A model generated the notes under the pieces. The model was not told the origin of the DNA and ran no database searches. It saw nothing but the letters and a program-made list of their open reading frames with translations. The position numbers and the translations under genes are program-made. A stretch of 64,000 nucleotides of DNA, from positions 4,256,001 to 4,320,000 of the forward strand of contig OY769902.1 in the NCBI GenBank assembly GCA_963669175.1, given 5' to 3'. Below, piece by piece: positions 26,273-53,136 of this stretch. The number at the start of each line of letters is the position of its first letter. Position 1 is the first letter of the stretch. This DNA comes from a bacterium (GTDB taxonomy: Bacteria > Electryoneota > Electryoneia > Electryoneales > Electryoneaceae).

Positions 26273-27865
26273 ATGACCGCAACCTCATCGAACGAACCTG
26301 CCGGTTTACCCGAAAAGGTTCTGGGACTCTTTCGGCGGCTTCGTGCAGGCGCCCCGGAACCCCAGGAACAGGAACTCCCTTCTGTATCATGGGTTCGCTG
26401 GTTTGATACGCCTCAAACGAAACGTGGCCGATTACACCTTTCCCGTTCCGGACTCGAGACCTTCATTTCCATGGTCGTCGGCGCTCATGACGATGACGAG
26501 GGCGACTTGGTCCTGGTGGTTGATCCGCTTCTCCCAGCCCCGGAGCGCAGTATGCCCGATGAAGTGGTATCCCTGGACGCCAAACTGTTGCACATGGATG
26601 AAGGCATTGAGATCAGTACGACGTTTCGTGCGCTTCTGGGTAAGGAGACCGAACAGGACGGGTACGAGGCGGTTGAGCTGGTTGAAATCAGCGATCTGGA
26701 TGTCGATTACCGTGAATACATGGCGCGAGTTACCGAAGCGCATGGTGTCGAGCTGAACCTGATGTGGCAGGGCGGCATGGTCACCGTCTACCCTTCCCAG
26801 CTTTCGGCGGGACGATTCCTGTTTGATGCTGAGTTGGATGGCGATATCGGCCCGGATGGGATTGAAATCCCCAAGGCTTCTGTCTGTTTGGAGTCCGGTG
26901 GCGATGATTACGCGCTTTCACTTCGGTTATACCGTCGTCCCTCCCCAGAATACGAAGCGGAAATTACCCGTATTGACGCCCCTATCAAGGAGAAACTGGT
27001 ACGCTTGGTCGAGGAGGTCTGGCGCGCAGAATCCGGTCTGGGACGTCTGGCATCATCACCGCGTAAACAGGTTGGTTATCGTACCAAACAGCATGATGCC
27101 CTGGCAGATGCGTTCAAGCATCATATAGTCTACCTCGGTGAAGATCCGGGCTGGGGAGACTTCCTGAAGAACTATGGCATCGTGCGTGAAATAGCGACAC
27201 TCTCGCCAAGTGACCTGGTGGACATCGTGCTTGGGGGAAGATGCGATCTGTTTGTCGGTGATCTTGCTTTTTGTGGAGATGAATCCATCCCGATAGAACA
27301 CACCTTGCAGGCGTATGCTCGAACCAGGCGCATTCCCCGGTTCTGGATTCAACCAGCTGACAACGATACCGAGTACCCGGACATGCGTCTGGAAGGCGCT
27401 TTCGACCAGTTTGATTCCGAGCAATTGAAGCAGGCTGGATTAACAACCCTGTTCAAGTGGGCGCTGGGAGGAGACAGTATTGGTTCCGGGAATAAAGTCC
27501 TGTTGGTCAGCGGAGATGATCGTATCCGGTATCGTTTGGGATTGGCTATCAGCGAAGCCGGCGGTAGAATCGTCTGGCGTGATGGGTGGCGAGGTCTGCT
27601 CCCCCAGTTGAAACACCTTGCGCCCAGGGTCATTCTTCTCGACGAACGTACAGTAAAATATGATCTTGACTCCATTCTGGAGCCCATTCTGGAAGTAGCG
27701 CCTTTGTTGAACTATAAAATTGTGTTACTGATTGAGAAGGCTTCTGGCGCATCTATCTTGCGATGGAAGAAGATGGGAGTCTATGATATTGTATTGCTGG
27801 ACCCATCCCTGCGCGATACGGAAAAACGCGTAACTCTATGGCTGGACTTGGAGGAAAAACCATGA
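26273..27865 (+). CDS. Hypothetical protein with degenerate receiver-like C-terminal domains
   Basis: Long ORF with genome-like codon usage overlapping thyX start (ATGA); C-terminal beta/alpha pattern (VLLVSGDD, PRVILLD). Confidence 0.6.
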   Translation: MTATSSNEPAGLPEKVLGLFRRLRAGAPEPQEQELPSVSWVRWFDTPQTKRGRLHLSRSGLETFISMVVGAHDDDEGDLVLVVDPLLPAPERSMPDEVVSLDAKLLHMDEGIEISTTFRALLGKETEQDGYEAVELVEISDLDVDYREYMARVTEAHGVELNLMWQGGMVTVYPSQLSAGRFLFDAELDGDIGPDGIEIPKASVCLESGGDDYALSLRLYRRPSPEYEAEITRIDAPIKEKLVRLVEEVWRAESGLGRLASSPRKQVGYRTKQHDALADAFKHHIVYLGEDPGWGDFLKNYGIVREIATLSPSDLVDIVLGGRCDLFVGDLAFCGDESIPIEHTLQAYARTRRIPRFWIQPADNDTEYPDMRLEGAFDQFDSEQLKQAGLTTLFKWALGGDSIGSGNKVLLVSGDDRIRYRLGLAISEAGGRIVWRDGWRGLLPQLKHLAPRVILLDERTVKYDLDSILEPILEVAPLLNYKIVLLIEKASGASILRWKKMGVYDIVLLDPSLRDTEKRVTLWLDLEEKP

Positions 27866-29409
27866 GCGACCTGCCTCTGCGCATCCACCTGGCAGGATTC
27901 AATATCGATACAGATACCATTCGTGAGTTGGAAGATGCAGCGTTTGGCGAGGCTACCCCTCCCCCACGCGAAGCCATTACTCCCGAAACAATCTCGGCCG
28001 CCTACGCACGCATCAGTCGCAATCCCGCGCCTGTAGATGAATTGCGCGCTATTTCGCGCAAAGAGGTTGCGAAGGCACGAAAATCAAACGAGAGTATCAT
28101 CTTCGGCCTGGGACATGCCAGTGTCGCGGAACATGCCTGTTTCAACTTCGATGTGATCGGGCTGTCACGTTTGGCCGTGGAAGCCATTCAACATCACAGG
28201 CTGGCGTCGTTTACGGAAAAATCACAGCGCTATATCAAACTCAAGAAAGATTACGTCGTTCCCCCGGAAATTGCTGAAATCGGAATGCAGCATGAGTTTG
28301 AAGAACTGATCGTTGAGCAGAATGCCATGTACCATCGCTTGTATCCGTTGTTGCTTGATTATTTCCTGCAACAGGAATCTGCCAGCGGCGGAAAACTGGA
28401 AGCCGGACCGGCGAAGAGCCTCGCGGCGGAAGATGCCCGCTATGTGGTATCACTTGCCACTCAATCCCAGTTCGGTATGACTGTAAATGCACGAACGCTC
28501 GAGATCATGGTACGCGCCTGCCTGGCTCATCCCCTGGTGGAAGTACGTGAAATCGGGGAACGATTACGGATTTCTGTGGCGGAGTTGGCGCCTTCGCTGG
28601 TGAAATACACCGATGCGACCAGCCATGAGAAGACCGTACACAAGGATAAGGCGTGGTGGTGTGAATTAGATCCCGGTCATGGTGAAGCCGTACAACTCGT
28701 GGACTGGGATCAGAACGGTGAGGTGAAAGTCCTGGCTGCGTTGCTGGTTCGTTCACAGGGCGTCGGTTTTGATGATGCTGTCCGTCAGGTCAAAGAAAGC
28801 ATGGAAAACGAGCAGCGCCTGGAACTGGTGACTCGTGCCCTTCGTGGCGAACAGGCATGGGACCCGCTTCCCCGCGAGTTCGAACTGGCCTCGTTTACCT
28901 TTGAAGTGACGCTTTCTTCCACCGCTTTTGCCCAGTTTAAACGTCACCGTATGGCCACAATTCTGGCTGGTCCATACAACCCCACTCTTGGCTGGACCAT
29001 CCCTCATTCTATCAAGGCTATCGGGATGGAAGATGAGTTTCATGATATCATGGCACGTTCGTCTGCCCTGGCCTGTCGTGTGTCGGAACAGCAACCTGCG
29101 GCGGCGGCATCGTATGCTTTAACCAATGCCCATCGTCGTCGTGTGCTTTTCCAGGCCAACGCTCGTGAACTGGTCCATGTCTCACGCCTGCGTGAAGATG
29201 TTCATGCCCAGTGGGATATCCGTCAGATCGCGGCTGCCATCATCAGGCAGGCCCGGCAGGTCGCGCCTACCCTGATGCTGCTGGCTGCGGGCAAACATGA
29301 GTTTGATACGGTCAGAAGCCGAGTCTTTCCGTTTAATCCTGATCCTCTGTTCAATTTACAGGATGCAAAGGATAAAAAGGATATTAAGGATGAAGTGAAA
29401 AAAGTTTGA
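27862..29409 (+). CDS. thyX: FAD-dependent thymidylate synthase with two tandem Thy1 domains
   Basis: GHASVAEH, HHRLASFTEKSQRY, EDARY..NAR; second domain QFKRHR..NARE..RLREDVHAQWDIR. Confidence 0.9.
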   Translation: MSDLPLRIHLAGFNIDTDTIRELEDAAFGEATPPPREAITPETISAAYARISRNPAPVDELRAISRKEVAKARKSNESIIFGLGHASVAEHACFNFDVIGLSRLAVEAIQHHRLASFTEKSQRYIKLKKDYVVPPEIAEIGMQHEFEELIVEQNAMYHRLYPLLLDYFLQQESASGGKLEAGPAKSLAAEDARYVVSLATQSQFGMTVNARTLEIMVRACLAHPLVEVREIGERLRISVAELAPSLVKYTDATSHEKTVHKDKAWWCELDPGHGEAVQLVDWDQNGEVKVLAALLVRSQGVGFDDAVRQVKESMENEQRLELVTRALRGEQAWDPLPREFELASFTFEVTLSSTAFAQFKRHRMATILAGPYNPTLGWTIPHSIKAIGMEDEFHDIMARSSALACRVSEQQPAAAASYALTNAHRRRVLFQANARELVHVSRLREDVHAQWDIRQIAAAIIRQARQVAPTLMLLAAGKHEFDTVRSRVFPFNPDPLFNLQDAKDKKDIKDEVKKV

Positions 29410-29489
29410 AAGTTGTAAAGTTGTAAAGTTATTTCGATTCCTAATCTCAATTCCTAATTCTTATAGCTGTTCTGCTATGTAAACAGTCA

Positions 29490-29694
29490 AGGGTGTAAAG
29501 AGCCTTTGTATCGTCCCATGTGCCGTTCTGCTATTCGTGCTCGTGGCACAAGTTTTTTGTTCGCACGGAACAGCGGCGCCCTAAACTCGAATCGTTGTCA
29601 AGCAACAGAATAACTACCAGGGTCGCGTGTTCCCAATGGCATCGGACGATTCAATCACAATCTATGCTTTACCTACCTGCCAGCAGTGCTGGGG
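29490..29694 (-). ncRNA. Putative bridge/seek RNA region of the IS1111 element
   Basis: ~220-nt non-coding end downstream of the transposase carrying short segments matching target (TCGAG, GCTGTTC) and donor (ATAGCAG). Confidence 0.65.
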
Positions 29695-30756
29695 TTATAC
29701 GCAGGCAGGATTGTAGTCTTGTTCTTTGACCAGCATGGCCCACAGTATCACGGCTAGTTTTCGTGCCATGGCGACGATCGCCACTTTCCGTGTTTTCCCG
29801 GCATGGATCGCATCGTATTTCTTCTTTGCATACGGATCTTTTTGCACCCAACGCCACGCAGCTTCGACCAATAGTTTTCGTAGATGGGACGGTCCCCAGT
29901 GGGTAATGTGTCCCATATGGCGTGTGTTGGCGCTTGACCATTCACACGGCGTCAAGCCAAGATGTGCGCCGACTTGCTTACCGGATGCGAAGCGTTCGGG
30001 ACGATACATCTCGGTCACGAAGGCGTTCACGGTCAGCTCGCCCACGCCTTTCACCTGGCACAGGCGCTGGGTACGGTCCCGATACGTTGCGGACGCATTC
30101 ATCGCCTTGATCGCTTTGGTGATCACCTTGAGTTGCTGTTCAATGGCCTCCAGCTCATCGAGAGCAACATCAATGGCTATCCGTGTCGCAGCCAGACAAT
30201 CACACGTTCCCAACCAGCGCCGGTATTCCTTTGTCCAATAGCGTTGCGGCGGAAACGGTGACTGTAAACCGTGAAACAATAGCAGACTCTTGATTCGGTT
30301 TTTGACCCGAACGCGATCATTCATCACCTGGTCACGGGTGCGAGACAACTGACGATCCGCCTCTTCCTGTTCTGTGGGGACATGTACCCAGGTACGAGGT
30401 GGTGTCCAGAACATGTGGGCCAAGGTAAGGGCATCCAGATGATCGGTCTTCTGCTGCTTCGCTTGCGCCCCTTTGGGAACTTGGCTGGGCGGCGCGATCT
30501 GGCAGTCAACACCTTGGCCGATCAGGTAACGACAGAGGCCAAAGCCGGTGAGGCCCGCTTCATAACACGCCCACATGCGGCAGTTGGGAAAACGGGCAAA
30601 GAAGCGTTCCCAGGCGGCTGAGTCATGCTTGATCCGATTCTCAAAGAGCACTTCACCAGTCTGGGTGTCGAGCACAACGGCGAAAGAAGTCTGCGAATCA
30701 ACATCCAGACCTATAGACAATGAACGGTCCGCTGCAATAACTTGGTTCTTCGACAT
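29695..30756 (-). CDS. IS110-family DEDD transposase/recombinase
   Basis: GLDVD, CYEAG, KTDHLDA RuvC-like DEDD; GVGEL, F.S.KQVGAHLGLTP.EWSS, G.ITHWG..HLRKLLVEAAW, AMARKL. Confidence 0.95.
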   Translation of the reverse strand: MSKNQVIAADRSLSIGLDVDSQTSFAVVLDTQTGEVLFENRIKHDSAAWERFFARFPNCRMWACYEAGLTGFGLCRYLIGQGVDCQIAPPSQVPKGAQAKQQKTDHLDALTLAHMFWTPPRTWVHVPTEQEEADRQLSRTRDQVMNDRVRVKNRIKSLLLFHGLQSPFPPQRYWTKEYRRWLGTCDCLAATRIAIDVALDELEAIEQQLKVITKAIKAMNASATYRDRTQRLCQVKGVGELTVNAFVTEMYRPERFASGKQVGAHLGLTPCEWSSANTRHMGHITHWGPSHLRKLLVEAAWRWVQKDPYAKKKYDAIHAGKTRKVAIVAMARKLAVILWAMLVKEQDYNPACV

Positions 30757-31146
30757 GGCGCTTCTCCTTGTGTTGGAAAAATGGAATACTGCTAAGATAG
30801 CAGTTCCAACACGACTTGATGCGCCTGTCGTTTAACATAGGAACTCGATTTCATTCCGTCATAATAGAGATTGCCGGGAAAAGGGGACGGGATCCTTTTC
30901 CTCGCGCTTATACAGAATATTTCTGAAGTATTTCTGGAAAAGGAAACTGTCCCCTTTTCCGTGTAATTCCTGCCTGCTCTCAAGAAAAAGGGTACAGCCA
31001 CCTTTCCCGGTCCATGCTCACAGCGGGAAGGCTTTACTTCAGGGAAAGGAAACTGTCCCCTTTTTCCATAGGCTTTTTCCTAGTCACCTATGAATCGTTC
31101 GTCGGATACTATCATGACGGTTTATTTTCAAGAGTAGCTATAATTC

Positions 31147-32607
31147 CTCGGTTTTGTTGAATTACTCAGGTCTTGCAAAAAGTAAAAGGCATGGTTCATT
31201 TTACAACCAAGAAGACGCCAAATCTCTTCAGTTGTAAAGGAGATAACCATGCCTGTCATAACATCGTCATTTTTTGAGTTACTTGCAAGTTTTCGTCCGG
31301 TGTTTCGGAAGCCTGTTTATGAGAATTTTGTACTGTTGGCTATCGGCGCTGTATTGAATTTCGGTCGTCAGACAGTCTGTCAGTTATTACGTGTATTTCC
31401 CGGACCGGTAGCGAAGAGTTGGTCTTGTTATCACCATTTTCTTTCGTCTGCCAACTGGTCCGCCCTGAAACTGGCAAAGATTCTCTGCTCTTTGATACTT
31501 GATCAGATTGCCGAACGTGATCCGATCCTTCTGATCGTGGATGATACCCTGATCCGTCGTTGGGGAAAGCATGTTTACCAGATATCCGTTCACCGCGATC
31601 CCGTCCGTTCGGGCAAAGCAGGGACAAAAGTCGTTTATGCTCGCGGTCTTCAATGGATGGTGATTTCGATTGGTTTGCGCACCCGTTATCGTTCGCAGAT
31701 CTGGGCGCTTCCTGTATTCGTGTTTCCGGAGATCGCCAAAAAGCGTGTTCCGGAATCGAAGTACCGCAGTCCTGTACACCTGATCATTCTCGGGGCGCGT
31801 CTGCTGCTTCGATGGTTCCCGGACCGCCGTTTCCTTATCCTTGCCGACGGTACGTTGAACTCCCACGAACTTCACCGTTTCGTGGCGAAAGAGAACCGTC
31901 TTGCTATCATCGGGCATTCGCGTATGGATACGGTGCTGCATGATCCGCCGCCTCCACCGAACGGGAAACGTGGACGTCCGCGCAAAGTCGGTGACCGTTT
32001 GCCCGCACCGGGACAAGAGGCGAAAAAGCCGGATGCTGCCTGGGAAAAAGCGTCTTGCCTCTGGTATGGGAACAAGACAAAAGACCTGTTGCTGCTTTCC
32101 GGTGTTGGCTGCTGGTACCGTTCCGGGGAAGATGTTGTCCTGATACGCTGGGTGGTGGCGCGTGATCCCGACGGCAAAAACAAGGACATTGTCTTATCTA
32201 CATCCAAAACAGACTTAACCCCGGCCCAGGTTGTCAGCTCATATGTACGACGATGGGCGTTGGAAACCACGTTTGAAGAGTCACGGAAACATCTGCGTAT
32301 CGAAACGACAGAAAACTGGTCAAAAAAATCGATTCAAAGAACAGTGCCCCTGCTGTTTGGCTTGTTCAGTCTGATGGTTGTTTGGTATAGTCAGCAGCCA
32401 GAGCAGAAAGCTGTTGCGCAAACAGAGTGGTACACAAAACTGGAACCCAGTTTCTCAGACGTGCATCAGGCATTGCGTGCTGAATTGTGGATGCAGGCGA
32501 TTTTTCCCGAATGCAAGCAGCCACGCGGATTCTTAAAAAAGAAAAGCAATATCCTTAAATTCCTTATTCACAAAGCCGCTTGATCCGCTAAAATGAGCAA
32601 AACCGAG
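31147..32607 (+). mobile_element. IS701-like insertion sequence with 8-bp TSD
   Basis: TIRs CTCGGTTTTGTTGA / TGAGCAAAACCGAG; direct repeat TATAATTC at 31139-31146 and 32608-32615. Confidence 0.88.
31249..32583 (+). CDS. DDE transposase (IS701/IS4 superfamily)
   Basis: LIVDDT, ILADG, Y..RW.LE..FEE.RKHL (YREK motif). Confidence 0.9.
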   Translation: MPVITSSFFELLASFRPVFRKPVYENFVLLAIGAVLNFGRQTVCQLLRVFPGPVAKSWSCYHHFLSSANWSALKLAKILCSLILDQIAERDPILLIVDDTLIRRWGKHVYQISVHRDPVRSGKAGTKVVYARGLQWMVISIGLRTRYRSQIWALPVFVFPEIAKKRVPESKYRSPVHLIILGARLLLRWFPDRRFLILADGTLNSHELHRFVAKENRLAIIGHSRMDTVLHDPPPPPNGKRGRPRKVGDRLPAPGQEAKKPDAAWEKASCLWYGNKTKDLLLLSGVGCWYRSGEDVVLIRWVVARDPDGKNKDIVLSTSKTDLTPAQVVSSYVRRWALETTFEESRKHLRIETTENWSKKSIQRTVPLLFGLFSLMVVWYSQQPEQKAVAQTEWYTKLEPSFSDVHQALRAELWMQAIFPECKQPRGFLKKKSNILKFLIHKAA

Positions 32608-47553: not shown

Positions 47554-47705
47554 TATGGCAATTCCAATTATTAATCCGTCATAGGGTCATGTGCTATATC
47601 AGTGAAATATCCTCTAAATGGTTGGAAGAAAGGATCATGGGAAAAGGGGACTGCCCTTTTACCGGCAATCTCCATGGTGACGGAATAAAATCGAGAACAG
47701 ATATT
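47554..47705 (-). mobile_element. MITE family 2, short degenerate copy C
   Basis: Reverse complement reads TATCTGTTCTCGATTTTATTCCGTCACCATGGAGATTGCCGG; other end TATGGCAATTCCAATTATTAATCCGTCAT. Confidence 0.65.
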
Positions 47706-52761: not shown

Positions 52762-53136
52762 TATAGCAGTTCTCGATTTTATTCCGTTATAATGGAGATT
52801 GCCGGGAAAAGGGGACGGGATCCTTTTCCTCCCGCTTATACAGACTATTCCTGAAGTATTCCTGGAATAGGAAACTGTCCCCTTTTCCGTGTAATTCCTG
52901 CCTGCTCTCAAGAAAAAGGGTACAGCCACCTTTCCCGGTCCATGCTCACACAGGGAAGGCTTTGCCACAGGAAAAAGAAACTGTCCCCTTCTTCTATGTC
53001 CTTTATTCCAACTATAGTGGGTTGCACAAATAACATTGCATAGGACAGCAATATTTCGAGATCCCCGGTTGATCCCCGACTACAACATTCGGGGAGGGGA
53101 TGACATGATGCGTCATTTTTCTCGAGTACTGCTATA
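52762..53136 (+). mobile_element. MITE family 2 copy B (uninterrupted; empty IS1111 target)
   Basis: TIRs TATAGCAGTTCTCGA / TCGAGTACTGCTATA (14/15). Confidence 0.8.

Follow-up and report, generated by a model that had tools for sequence, protein, structure and literature searches.

What directs an insertion sequence (IS) to one point, and in one orientation, within the terminal repeats of another mobile element? This question is raised by a 1370-bp IS at positions 29474-30843 of the window, the 64,000-nucleotide stretch analyzed here (contig OY769902.1, positions 4,256,001 to 4,320,000, from a bacterium of the Electryoneota), which interrupts the left inverted repeat of a miniature inverted-repeat transposable element (MITE). 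Our analysis indicates, with a probability of about 0.88, that the element is an active member of the IS110/IS1111 superfamily, IS1111-type in its architecture, and that its targeting is guided by an RNA from its 3' end. This interpretation is built on the anatomy of the element, its copies, the empty sites, and the covariation of the guides with the targets and with the donor end, all of which were observed. An earlier interpretation, made from the letters of the window (the sequence-only reading), had likewise proposed RNA-guided targeting from the noncoding 3' end, and guide-target covariation in homologs supports that proposal.

The boundaries of the element were examined in its copies. 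The genome, a single 5.45-Mb contig, carries 12 copies of the IS that are 99.27 to 100% identical across all 1370 bp, each with an intact transposase frame. In the window, TATAGCTGTT-CT (29462-29473) is followed by the IS and then by CT-CGATTT (30844-30851), such that a core dinucleotide is present at each junction. The core on the right-end (RE) side (29472-29473) is derived from the target and reads CC in 4/12 copies, while that on the left-end (LE) side (30844-30845) is CT in 12/12. With the copies in like orientation, ATAG-N3-TTC[T/C] was found on one side of all 12 and CTCG[A/G] on the other side of 11, with CTCTGA in the remaining copy; the orientation relative to the site was identical in every case, and TAG was invariant at all occupied sites. 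A unitig from a public run spans exactly 29474-30846 at a depth of 287, compared to ~26 for unique flank, which agrees with an approximately eleven-fold repetition and confirms the boundaries. Copies 1687173 and 3525644 were considered as a single composite duplication, but their flanks are just 89.6% identical, and they are therefore separate insertions.

Insertion produces no duplication beyond the shared core, as the empty sites hold one CT. Genome-wide, seven such sites strictly matched ATAG[CT][TA][GA]TTC[TC]CG[AG], one of them at window position 52763, in the left end of another MITE copy (52762-52779, plus strand; TATAGCAGTT-CT-CGATTT). A diverged empty target is present at the end of a short MITE copy on the minus strand (47687-47704). 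The splitting of the target with CT at both junctions and the empty site at 52762, both described in the sequence-only reading, were thus confirmed by the 12 copies, the empty sites, and the unitig ends. Its second, inverted empty site (~47688-47705) does exist, at 47704-47687, but is not identical to the first, reading ATATCTGTT-CT-CGATTT.

Next, the targets were characterized. A 22-nt internal anchor identified 88 left ends of the MITE, and a right repeat was found for 45 of these, giving sizes of 152 bp (1 copy), 203 to 222 bp (9 copies), 308 to 324 bp (34 copies), and 340 bp (1 copy). The repeats are ~30 bp long and imperfect, the right being an inverted copy of the left, and a multicopy element with such ends is therefore classed as a MITE. 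In the window, the IS cuts off the outer 12 bp of the left inverted repeat (29462-29473, plus strand) from the remainder (30846-31142, plus strand), which ends in the right inverted repeat ...AGTAGCTATA; without the IS, this MITE measures 309 bp in all. The insertion point lies inside the left repeat, after the 10th base of TAGCTGTTCT (the MITE end counted from TAG; 12 bases from TATAG). No target-site duplication of the MITE was seen by eye beyond a possible TA within TATAG...CTATA. An initial candidate for its right end, GGACAGCAATA at 53041-53051, was rejected when it was found in 4/88 copies, and local alignment gave the real right repeat.

Of the 12 IS copies, seven interrupt the ~310-bp MITE, three sit at the end of a second repeat family, and the remaining two occupy single-copy DNA. 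The occupied MITE ends (7/88) are all of the TAG variant, and the right repeat, which reads TAGCGATTCC-CATT in the same sense, was never occupied. The sequence-only reading had proposed targeting to the terminal inverted repeats of this MITE and had expected such flanks at the genome-wide copies. The target does lie in the terminal repeat of a real MITE, as it does for seven copies, but the other five lie outside this family, and those at the two unique sites still match the guides. A tuning of the IS to the MITE consensus is not supported, as the commonest ends, TTGCTGTTCTCGAT (16 copies) and TAACTGTTCTCGAT (9 copies), were never occupied. The further suggestion of the sequence-only reading, that insertion immobilizes the MITE, is conjecture. 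The second repeat family ends in TATAG-NNNN-TTCC-CGAAAG..., gave more than 90 BLAST hits, and is found at ~90 to 140 places besides C1:4232931-4233330; its interior has 18-bp units in tandem that resemble GATAGCTATTGCTGATTC, and a AGCCTGCTTCAGCAGGCT hairpin is conserved. The MITE interior (e.g., 30868-30970) carries paired GGGAAAAGGGGAC and GTCCCCTTTTCC arms and gave weak, sub-threshold microRNA-like Rfam matches, which probably reflect a strong internal hairpin.

The RE noncoding end, downstream of the transposase gene, comprises 221 nt (29474-29694), and the LE noncoding end comprises 87 nt (30757-30843). Folding of the former predicts a seekRNA/bridge RNA region on the minus strand (29506-29654, the extent given by folding) in which a target loop is followed by a donor loop and an outer stem joins 29654-29640 to 29520-29506. 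In the minimum-energy structure of 29634-29511 (minus-strand RNA), a basal stem pairs 29633-29617 (GGAACACGCG-A-CCCUGG) with 29584-29567, with one bulged A. Within this stem lies an internal loop with UAGUUAUUCU (29607-29616) as its 5' strand and GA-UUCGAG-U (29593-29585) as its 3' strand; the hairpin GUUG-CUUGA-CAAC (29594-29606) caps the loop. UAGUUAUUCU is a perfect 10-nt complement of AG-AATAACTA, the flank of three copies (TAGTTATT-CT in window orientation), and is the predicted top-strand target guide. UUCGAG (29586-29591), followed by UU (29585-29584), reproduces the left flank and core found at sites of the second family and has one mismatch to the MITE sites; it is the predicted bottom-strand guide. 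The top-strand complement thus precedes the bottom-strand match, as in the IS1111 type.

If these assignments are correct, occupancy should be related to the number of mismatches. The 12 copies were removed by script, and every genomic site was scored for mismatches. Since the match between loop and flank had been noticed before counting, these within-genome counts are not blind, and just the homolog tests described below are independent of that choice. Sites with one mismatch to TAGTTATTCTCGAA were occupied in 2/3 cases, those with two in 5/35, and those with three in 4/451, with one copy at more than three mismatches; for GCTGTTCTCGAAT, the target of the sequence-only reading, the corresponding values were 3/41, 3/202, and 3/1667, with three copies at more than three mismatches. 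Within the MITE left ends, occupancy was 1/1 at one mismatch to TAGTTATTCTCGAA, 2/4 at two, 3/13 at three, 1/43 at four, and 0/27 at five or more. MITE ends starting with TAG were occupied in 7/26 cases and all others in 0/62 (Fisher p = 1e-4); the unoccupied TTG ends hold GCTGTTC whole, and the unoccupied TAA ends hold its last six bases. The preferred, or ideal, site reads TAGTTATT-CT-CGAA.

To extend the analysis beyond this genome, homologous elements were collected. A protein search yielded 770 homologs at E <= 1e-30, of which 37 were aligned, and a search with this alignment led to 80 metagenome loci. A single-protein scan of genome contigs gave three loci, and two of 40 relatives' genomes had a match (48% identity); the nearest relatives found are contigs of Calditrichaeota metagenome-assembled genomes (MAGs). 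Seventeen homolog loci with readable ends and transposases 44 to 56% identical to that of the window were used (15 metagenome loci, with L013 and L017 added by searches of genomes). L042 and L045, whose contigs end too early, were left out, L043 duplicates L044 and was left unscored, and L013 nearly duplicates L030. At 17/17 homolog loci, the LE starts with [T/A]T[C/T]CTAT and the RE ends in TTGAC-N-ATAG[C/T].

For the guide test, a 26-nt loop window was set solely by a conserved GA[CT]C stem motif at 16 loci, which fell into 12 target groups with one representative each. The mean longest Watson-Crick run of the loop window was 6.33 against the RE flank of the same locus and 3.80 against the flanks of other groups. 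The bottom-strand guide, anchored on CG-N5-6-core-U, matched its own LE flank at 3.5/5 positions and those of others at 1.27/5. For either guide, values this high were reached in 0/5000 permutations (derangements). Examples are L032, with guide UGAAGCAAUCU against AG-ATTGCTTCA, and L044 and L017, with guides GUGGCCCUG and GUGGCCCGG against CAGGGCCAC and TCGGGCCAC. An unanchored longest-run score that allowed wobble pairs was too noisy to separate own from other flanks and was discarded.

The stem that encloses the guides was conserved as well. The two arms of the basal stem paired with a mean of -20.4 kcal/mol within a locus compared to -13.4 kcal/mol between loci (0/2000 permutations), and, by eye, the same fold topology was present in 11/16 single-sequence folds. 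RNAalifold run on the raw MAFFT alignment recovered the donor hairpin only, because the target loop is out of register in that alignment. When the window structure was projected on the same alignment, just 9 to 18 of 30 pairs held in the other rows, and self-versus-cross tests were therefore used instead of a covariance model.

The donor side was analyzed similarly. The predicted donor guide, AUAGCAG followed by AA (29526-29534; AUAGCAG at 29534-29528), is identical to the RE end plus core; CGAAUAGCAG is kept in homologs and changes where the RE end changes, with AUAGUAG opposite ATAGT-AG in L039 and AUAGCUG opposite ATAGC-TG in L037 and L041. This conservation and covariation indicate that the assignment of ATAGCAG as donor guide is right. 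The hairpin that caps the donor loop (29536-29550) has four consensus pairs, two with compensatory changes. On its other side we infer a candidate second donor guide, AACU (29554-29551), complementary to AG-TT of the circle junction; homologs have GAAACU or GAACU at this position, with, by eye, 3 to 6 of 6 matches and partial tracking of TTTC versus TTCC ends. Position 29551, the final base of this candidate, is the sole variable base of the 3' noncoding end among the 12 copies (T in nine, C in three), and the other guides are identical in all 12.

A further feature of the two loops recalls IS621. There, according to the structural account (PMC11208158), each right-side guide is followed by a dinucleotide that base-pairs with the noncognate DNA once the strands have been exchanged, and that dinucleotide must be unable to pair with its cognate DNA. 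In CT orientation, target and donor here read TAGTTATT-CT-CGAA and CATAGGAA-CT-GCTATG, respectively. The UU after UUCGAG pairs with donor AA and not with target TT, and the AA after AUAGCAG pairs with target TT and not with donor AA. As read from these sequences, both dinucleotides would fit the IS621 handshake rule.

The ends of the element also predict how it might be expressed. LE and RE carry subterminal inverted repeats, CTATGTTAAAC (30830-30840, minus strand), preceded by the 3-nt extension TTC, and CTATGTAAAC (29475-29484, plus strand), preceded by a 1-nt extension; the two share 10 identical positions with one 1-nt indel. Such repeats are present at 17/17 loci (the window and 16 homologs), with 6 to 24 identical positions and with both ends changing jointly. 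When the ends are joined through one copy of the core, the computed circle junction reads ...CATAGC-AG-TTCCTATG... (core AG in transposase orientation) and brings a -35 box, TTGACT (29485-29490, minus strand), to 17 nt from a -10 box, TATGTT (30834-30839, minus strand). The sigma-70-like junction promoter TTGACT-N17-TATGTT, put forward in the sequence-only reading, was reproduced by this computation and is kept in 17/17 junctions: the -35 box is TTGAC[T/A], the spacer measures 17 nt at 14 loci and 18 nt at three, and the -10 box is TATGTT, TATATT, or TATGAT. In the linear element, 0 sigma-70-like promoters were found on either strand, compared to a mean of 1.0 in shuffles, a result consistent with transcription from the junction promoter or by read-through. 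The RNA run among the public data consists of just two pieces of 151 nt (depth 2), which come from a relative, and is uninformative on expression.

For four copies (4231561, 1687173, 3525644, and 5242043), the related empty sites carry CC as the core. In 4/4, the RE-side (window-left) junction keeps the CC of the target and the LE-side (window-right) junction has the CT of the IS. Among the five homologs with unequal cores, L033, L034, L038, and L044 differ from the guide core on the RE side only, and L040 is the exception. This polarity would imply exchange of both strands at a single side of the core or, alternatively, a strong bias in repair; the small numbers fit what cleavage downstream of the core, as in IS621, would predict if no heteroduplex survives. 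A separate observation concerns the 5' untranslated region (UTR) of the transposase gene, where a predicted hairpin (30757-30825, minus strand) covers the ribosome-binding site and bears at its top GGAACUGCUAU, the reverse complement of the circle junction. Within it, GGAACTGCTAT (30799-30809, minus strand) is the exact reverse complement of the computed junction ATAGC-AG-TTCC. At the same position, L030, L031, L032, L033, L034, and L038 carry 6 to 9 nt of the reverse-complement junction, and the other clades do not. The motif may act as a pseudo-donor site; alternatively, the donor guide may pair with it, which would link translation of the transposase to the seekRNA level. It is a tentative and rather doubtful suggestion that the two observations together (that a mismatched core is tolerated, with the target core staying on the RE side and the donor core on the LE side, and that the 5' UTR holds an 11-nt junction complement) record as yet unmeasured mechanistic rules of IS1111-type elements.

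A mechanism can be proposed from these results. By analogy to the known biology of the family, the IS would excise in circular form, with a single core dinucleotide between RE and LE, and the junction so formed would create TTGACT-N17-TATGTT, which would drive the transposase gene and the 3' noncoding end. The 3' end would fold into a seekRNA/bridge RNA with an internal loop closed by a long basal stem. In this loop, UAGUUAUUCU on the 5' strand would pair with the top strand of the target (core and right side) and UUCGAG on the 3' strand with the bottom strand (left side and core), and AUAGCAG of the second loop would pair with the RE end and core of the donor. The UU and AA that follow UUCGAG and AUAGCAG would match the opposite DNA partner, like the handshake guides of IS621. 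Because the preferred sites lie mostly 10 nt inside the MITE left repeat and in the ends of the second family, the IS would accumulate there in one orientation.

Other explanations for the flanks and the RNA were considered. In the sequence-only reading, AUUCGAG and GCUGUUC read the target and AUAGCAG and CAUGGGA (~29520-29514) read the donor. All four words are present in the RNA, and two retain their roles: (A)UUCGAG forms the 3' strand of the target loop and covaries with homolog flanks, and AUAGCAG covaries with the RE end. The case for GCUGUUC (29574-29568) is that it perfectly complements GAACAGC in 4/12 flanks, including that of the window copy, for which it gave the longest unanchored run (7 nt). 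However, GCUGUUC is part of the 3' strand of the basal stem (29567-29584), and its pairing with GGGAACA (29633-29627) changes on both strands in homologs, unrelated to their targets. Moreover, just 3 of the 29 MITE ends within one mismatch of GCTGTTCTCGAAT are occupied (0/16 for the TTGCTGTTCTCGAT ends), and the invariance of TAG at 12/12 sites is left unexplained. CAUGGGA, assigned to the right side of the donor, lies in the outer stem with 29654-29640 at a position that is not conserved in homologs, and the resulting order, with the bottom-strand guide before the top-strand guide, is that of IS110 and not that of IS1111. We therefore regard this arrangement of guides as very unlikely. Were a protein or some feature of the MITE ends to pick the target, the RNA-DNA matches would be coincidental. 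With 10/12 copies in two families that have similar ends (TATAG...TTC), the shared flanks could indeed reflect ancestry of the targets; yet the two copies in unique, nonrepeat DNA still match the guides, occupancy tracks the mismatch count inside a single MITE family, and the loop strands track their own flanks across 12 unrelated target groups (0/5000 permutations). RNA guidance has, in addition, been shown experimentally for members of the family in the published account (PMC11187229), and selection by a protein or MITE feature appears highly improbable. That ATAG...TTC and CTCGA occur at all 12 copies might also mean that the ends were set wrongly and that the conserved flanks belong to the IS, with no separate target element. 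This is next to impossible: the flanks vary at five positions among the copies while the IS is at least 99.3% identical, the joined flanks are present at 81 other MITE ends without the IS, the MITE owns a right inverted repeat, and the repeat unitig ends at 29474 and 30846. The empty sites refute it.

Several observations nevertheless weigh against the RNA-guided IS1111-type interpretation that we favor. The copy in the window pairs imperfectly with the top-strand guide (AGAACAGCTA, with a single C-A mismatch and a single G-U pair), copy 886653 has four mismatches to the ideal site, and copy 4336278 matches the bottom-strand guide poorly. The second donor guide, AACU, is just 4 nt long and covaries poorly. 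The whole 221-nt end folds no better than shuffled sequences (z = -0.36), and an Rfam scan of 29000-31300 found no bridge-RNA family, just chance microRNA-like matches below the gathering score. The protein identity to named IS1111-family members is just 23.7 to 26%. No joined RE-LE form was seen in contigs of four public runs, although contigs are uninformative on circles, and the RNA, the circle junction, and activity are predictions from sequence.

The transposase itself (353 amino acids; 29695-30756, minus strand) has both domains of the superfamily, DEDD_Tnp_IS110 (PF01548; E 5e-18) and Transposase_20 (PF02371; E 1.9e-19). In the alignment of 37 homologs, D18, D20, E66, D105, D108, S274, and S275 are invariant; the serine motif here reads GLTPCEWSSA, compared to GL-P----S(t)G in the family. 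The protein is 23.7% identical to the ISKpn4 type, 26% to the IS4321 type, and 25.1% to the IS5075 type (the latter two over 71% of the query); identities are 30.8% to the ISEc45 type and 28.6% to the IS5708 type, which may fall in either the IS110 or the IS1111 group. The assignment to the IS1111 type made in the sequence-only reading stands on the DEDD transposase, the subterminal inverted repeats, and the long 3' noncoding end. By these features, the architecture is IS1111-type; placement in the IS1111 clade from the protein is tentative. Published descriptions of the family, as far as consulted, give subterminal inverted repeats of 7 to 17 bp, usually 11 to 13, and terminal extensions of 7 (or 6) nt on the left and 3 nt on the right. 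The extensions here are 3 nt (LE) and 1 nt (RE), or 5 and 3 nt if the core is counted, and the convention for counting the core decides the result of this comparison.

Insertion into the ends of other mobile elements has precedents. IS4321 and IS5075, for which terminal repeats of Tn21-family transposons are given as targets in the descriptions consulted, are likewise IS1111-family elements that insert in one orientation into another mobile element's terminal inverted repeat. They target a 38-bp repeat that belongs to large transposons of the Tn3 family. They differ from the present element in protein sequence (25 to 26% identity over 71% of the query) and in that the target here is a MITE. 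In Coxiella burnetii, the available account reports 20/21 copies of IS1111 in QMITE2, with 10 to 20 bp of the MITE beyond the IS (Wachter et al. 2018, PMC5896051). As here, where 12 bp are left and 10/12 copies are in two families, insertion is near one end of a multicopy MITE. The differences, as far as that account allows comparison, are that the transposases have no close homology, that the QMITE2 target is a GTAG repetitive extragenic palindrome inside the MITE whereas here it is the outermost 10 to 16 bp of the terminal inverted repeat, and that the phylum is another one.

RNA guidance also has precedents. In the published description, IS1111-type seekRNAs are 70 to 100 nt long and 3' noncoding, with the top-strand complement 5' of the bottom-strand match and the two overlapping in the target (PMC11187229), and the right end is reported to yield a bridge-RNA prediction for 93% of IS1111 elements (PMC11208160). 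By the seekRNA description (Siddiquee et al. 2024, PMC11187229), ISEc11, ISPa11, ISKpn4, and ISPst6 share with this element the 3' noncoding RNA, the top-before-bottom order, the core overlap, the subterminal inverted repeats, and a circle-junction promoter. They differ from it, by the values stated there, in extensions of 7 (or 6) and 3 nt, in a transposase length of 330 to 350 amino acids, and in SG/TG in place of SA in the serine motif. The likeness to IS621, within the accounts consulted, extends to two internal loops that each read both strands around a 2-nt core, to the core CT (here on the strand opposite the transposase) and to two handshake bases (Durrant et al. 2024, PMC11208160; Hiraizumi et al. 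2024, PMC11208158). The core also stays with the left-hand neighbor in CT orientation, as downstream cleavage predicts (PMC11208158). Unlike in IS621, the RNA here is downstream and not upstream of the recombinase gene, whose orientation to the core is reversed; the subterminal repeats are also long, and the second donor guide is very short.

The surroundings of the element contain two further genes. A 523-amino-acid open reading frame (27838-29409, plus strand) with two Thy1 (ThyX) matches (Pfam E 2e-57) ends ~50 bp before the MITE. On the other side, a DDE_5 transposase gene (31249-32583, plus strand; Pfam E 4e-24) belongs to another IS, which starts at ~31143, adjoining the right end of the MITE, and whose left end has about six copies in the genome. 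A suspected resemblance of the DDE_5 IS end to the MITE end was abandoned when the right repeat of the MITE was located at 31142. Because the DDE_5 IS adjoins the MITE that carries the IS1111-type element, three mobile elements are nested or adjacent at this locus.

The kind of system described here is already known: RNA-guided IS1111/IS110 elements were described in 2024, and insertion into MITE ends is known for IS1111. The result is a clean and useful data set and not a surprise. RNA-guided IS110/IS1111 recombinases are under development as programmable genome-insertion tools, and this locus offers a natural data set: 12 near-identical copies in one genome, ~90 candidate sites that can be ranked by their mismatches, and 16 relatives whose ends are readable. 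From such data, sequence alone locates the guides of an IS1111-type element, the mismatches that are tolerated in vivo, and the importance of the outer TAG. For genome biology, it is a further case of an IS living in the ends of other mobile elements and no new kind of system.

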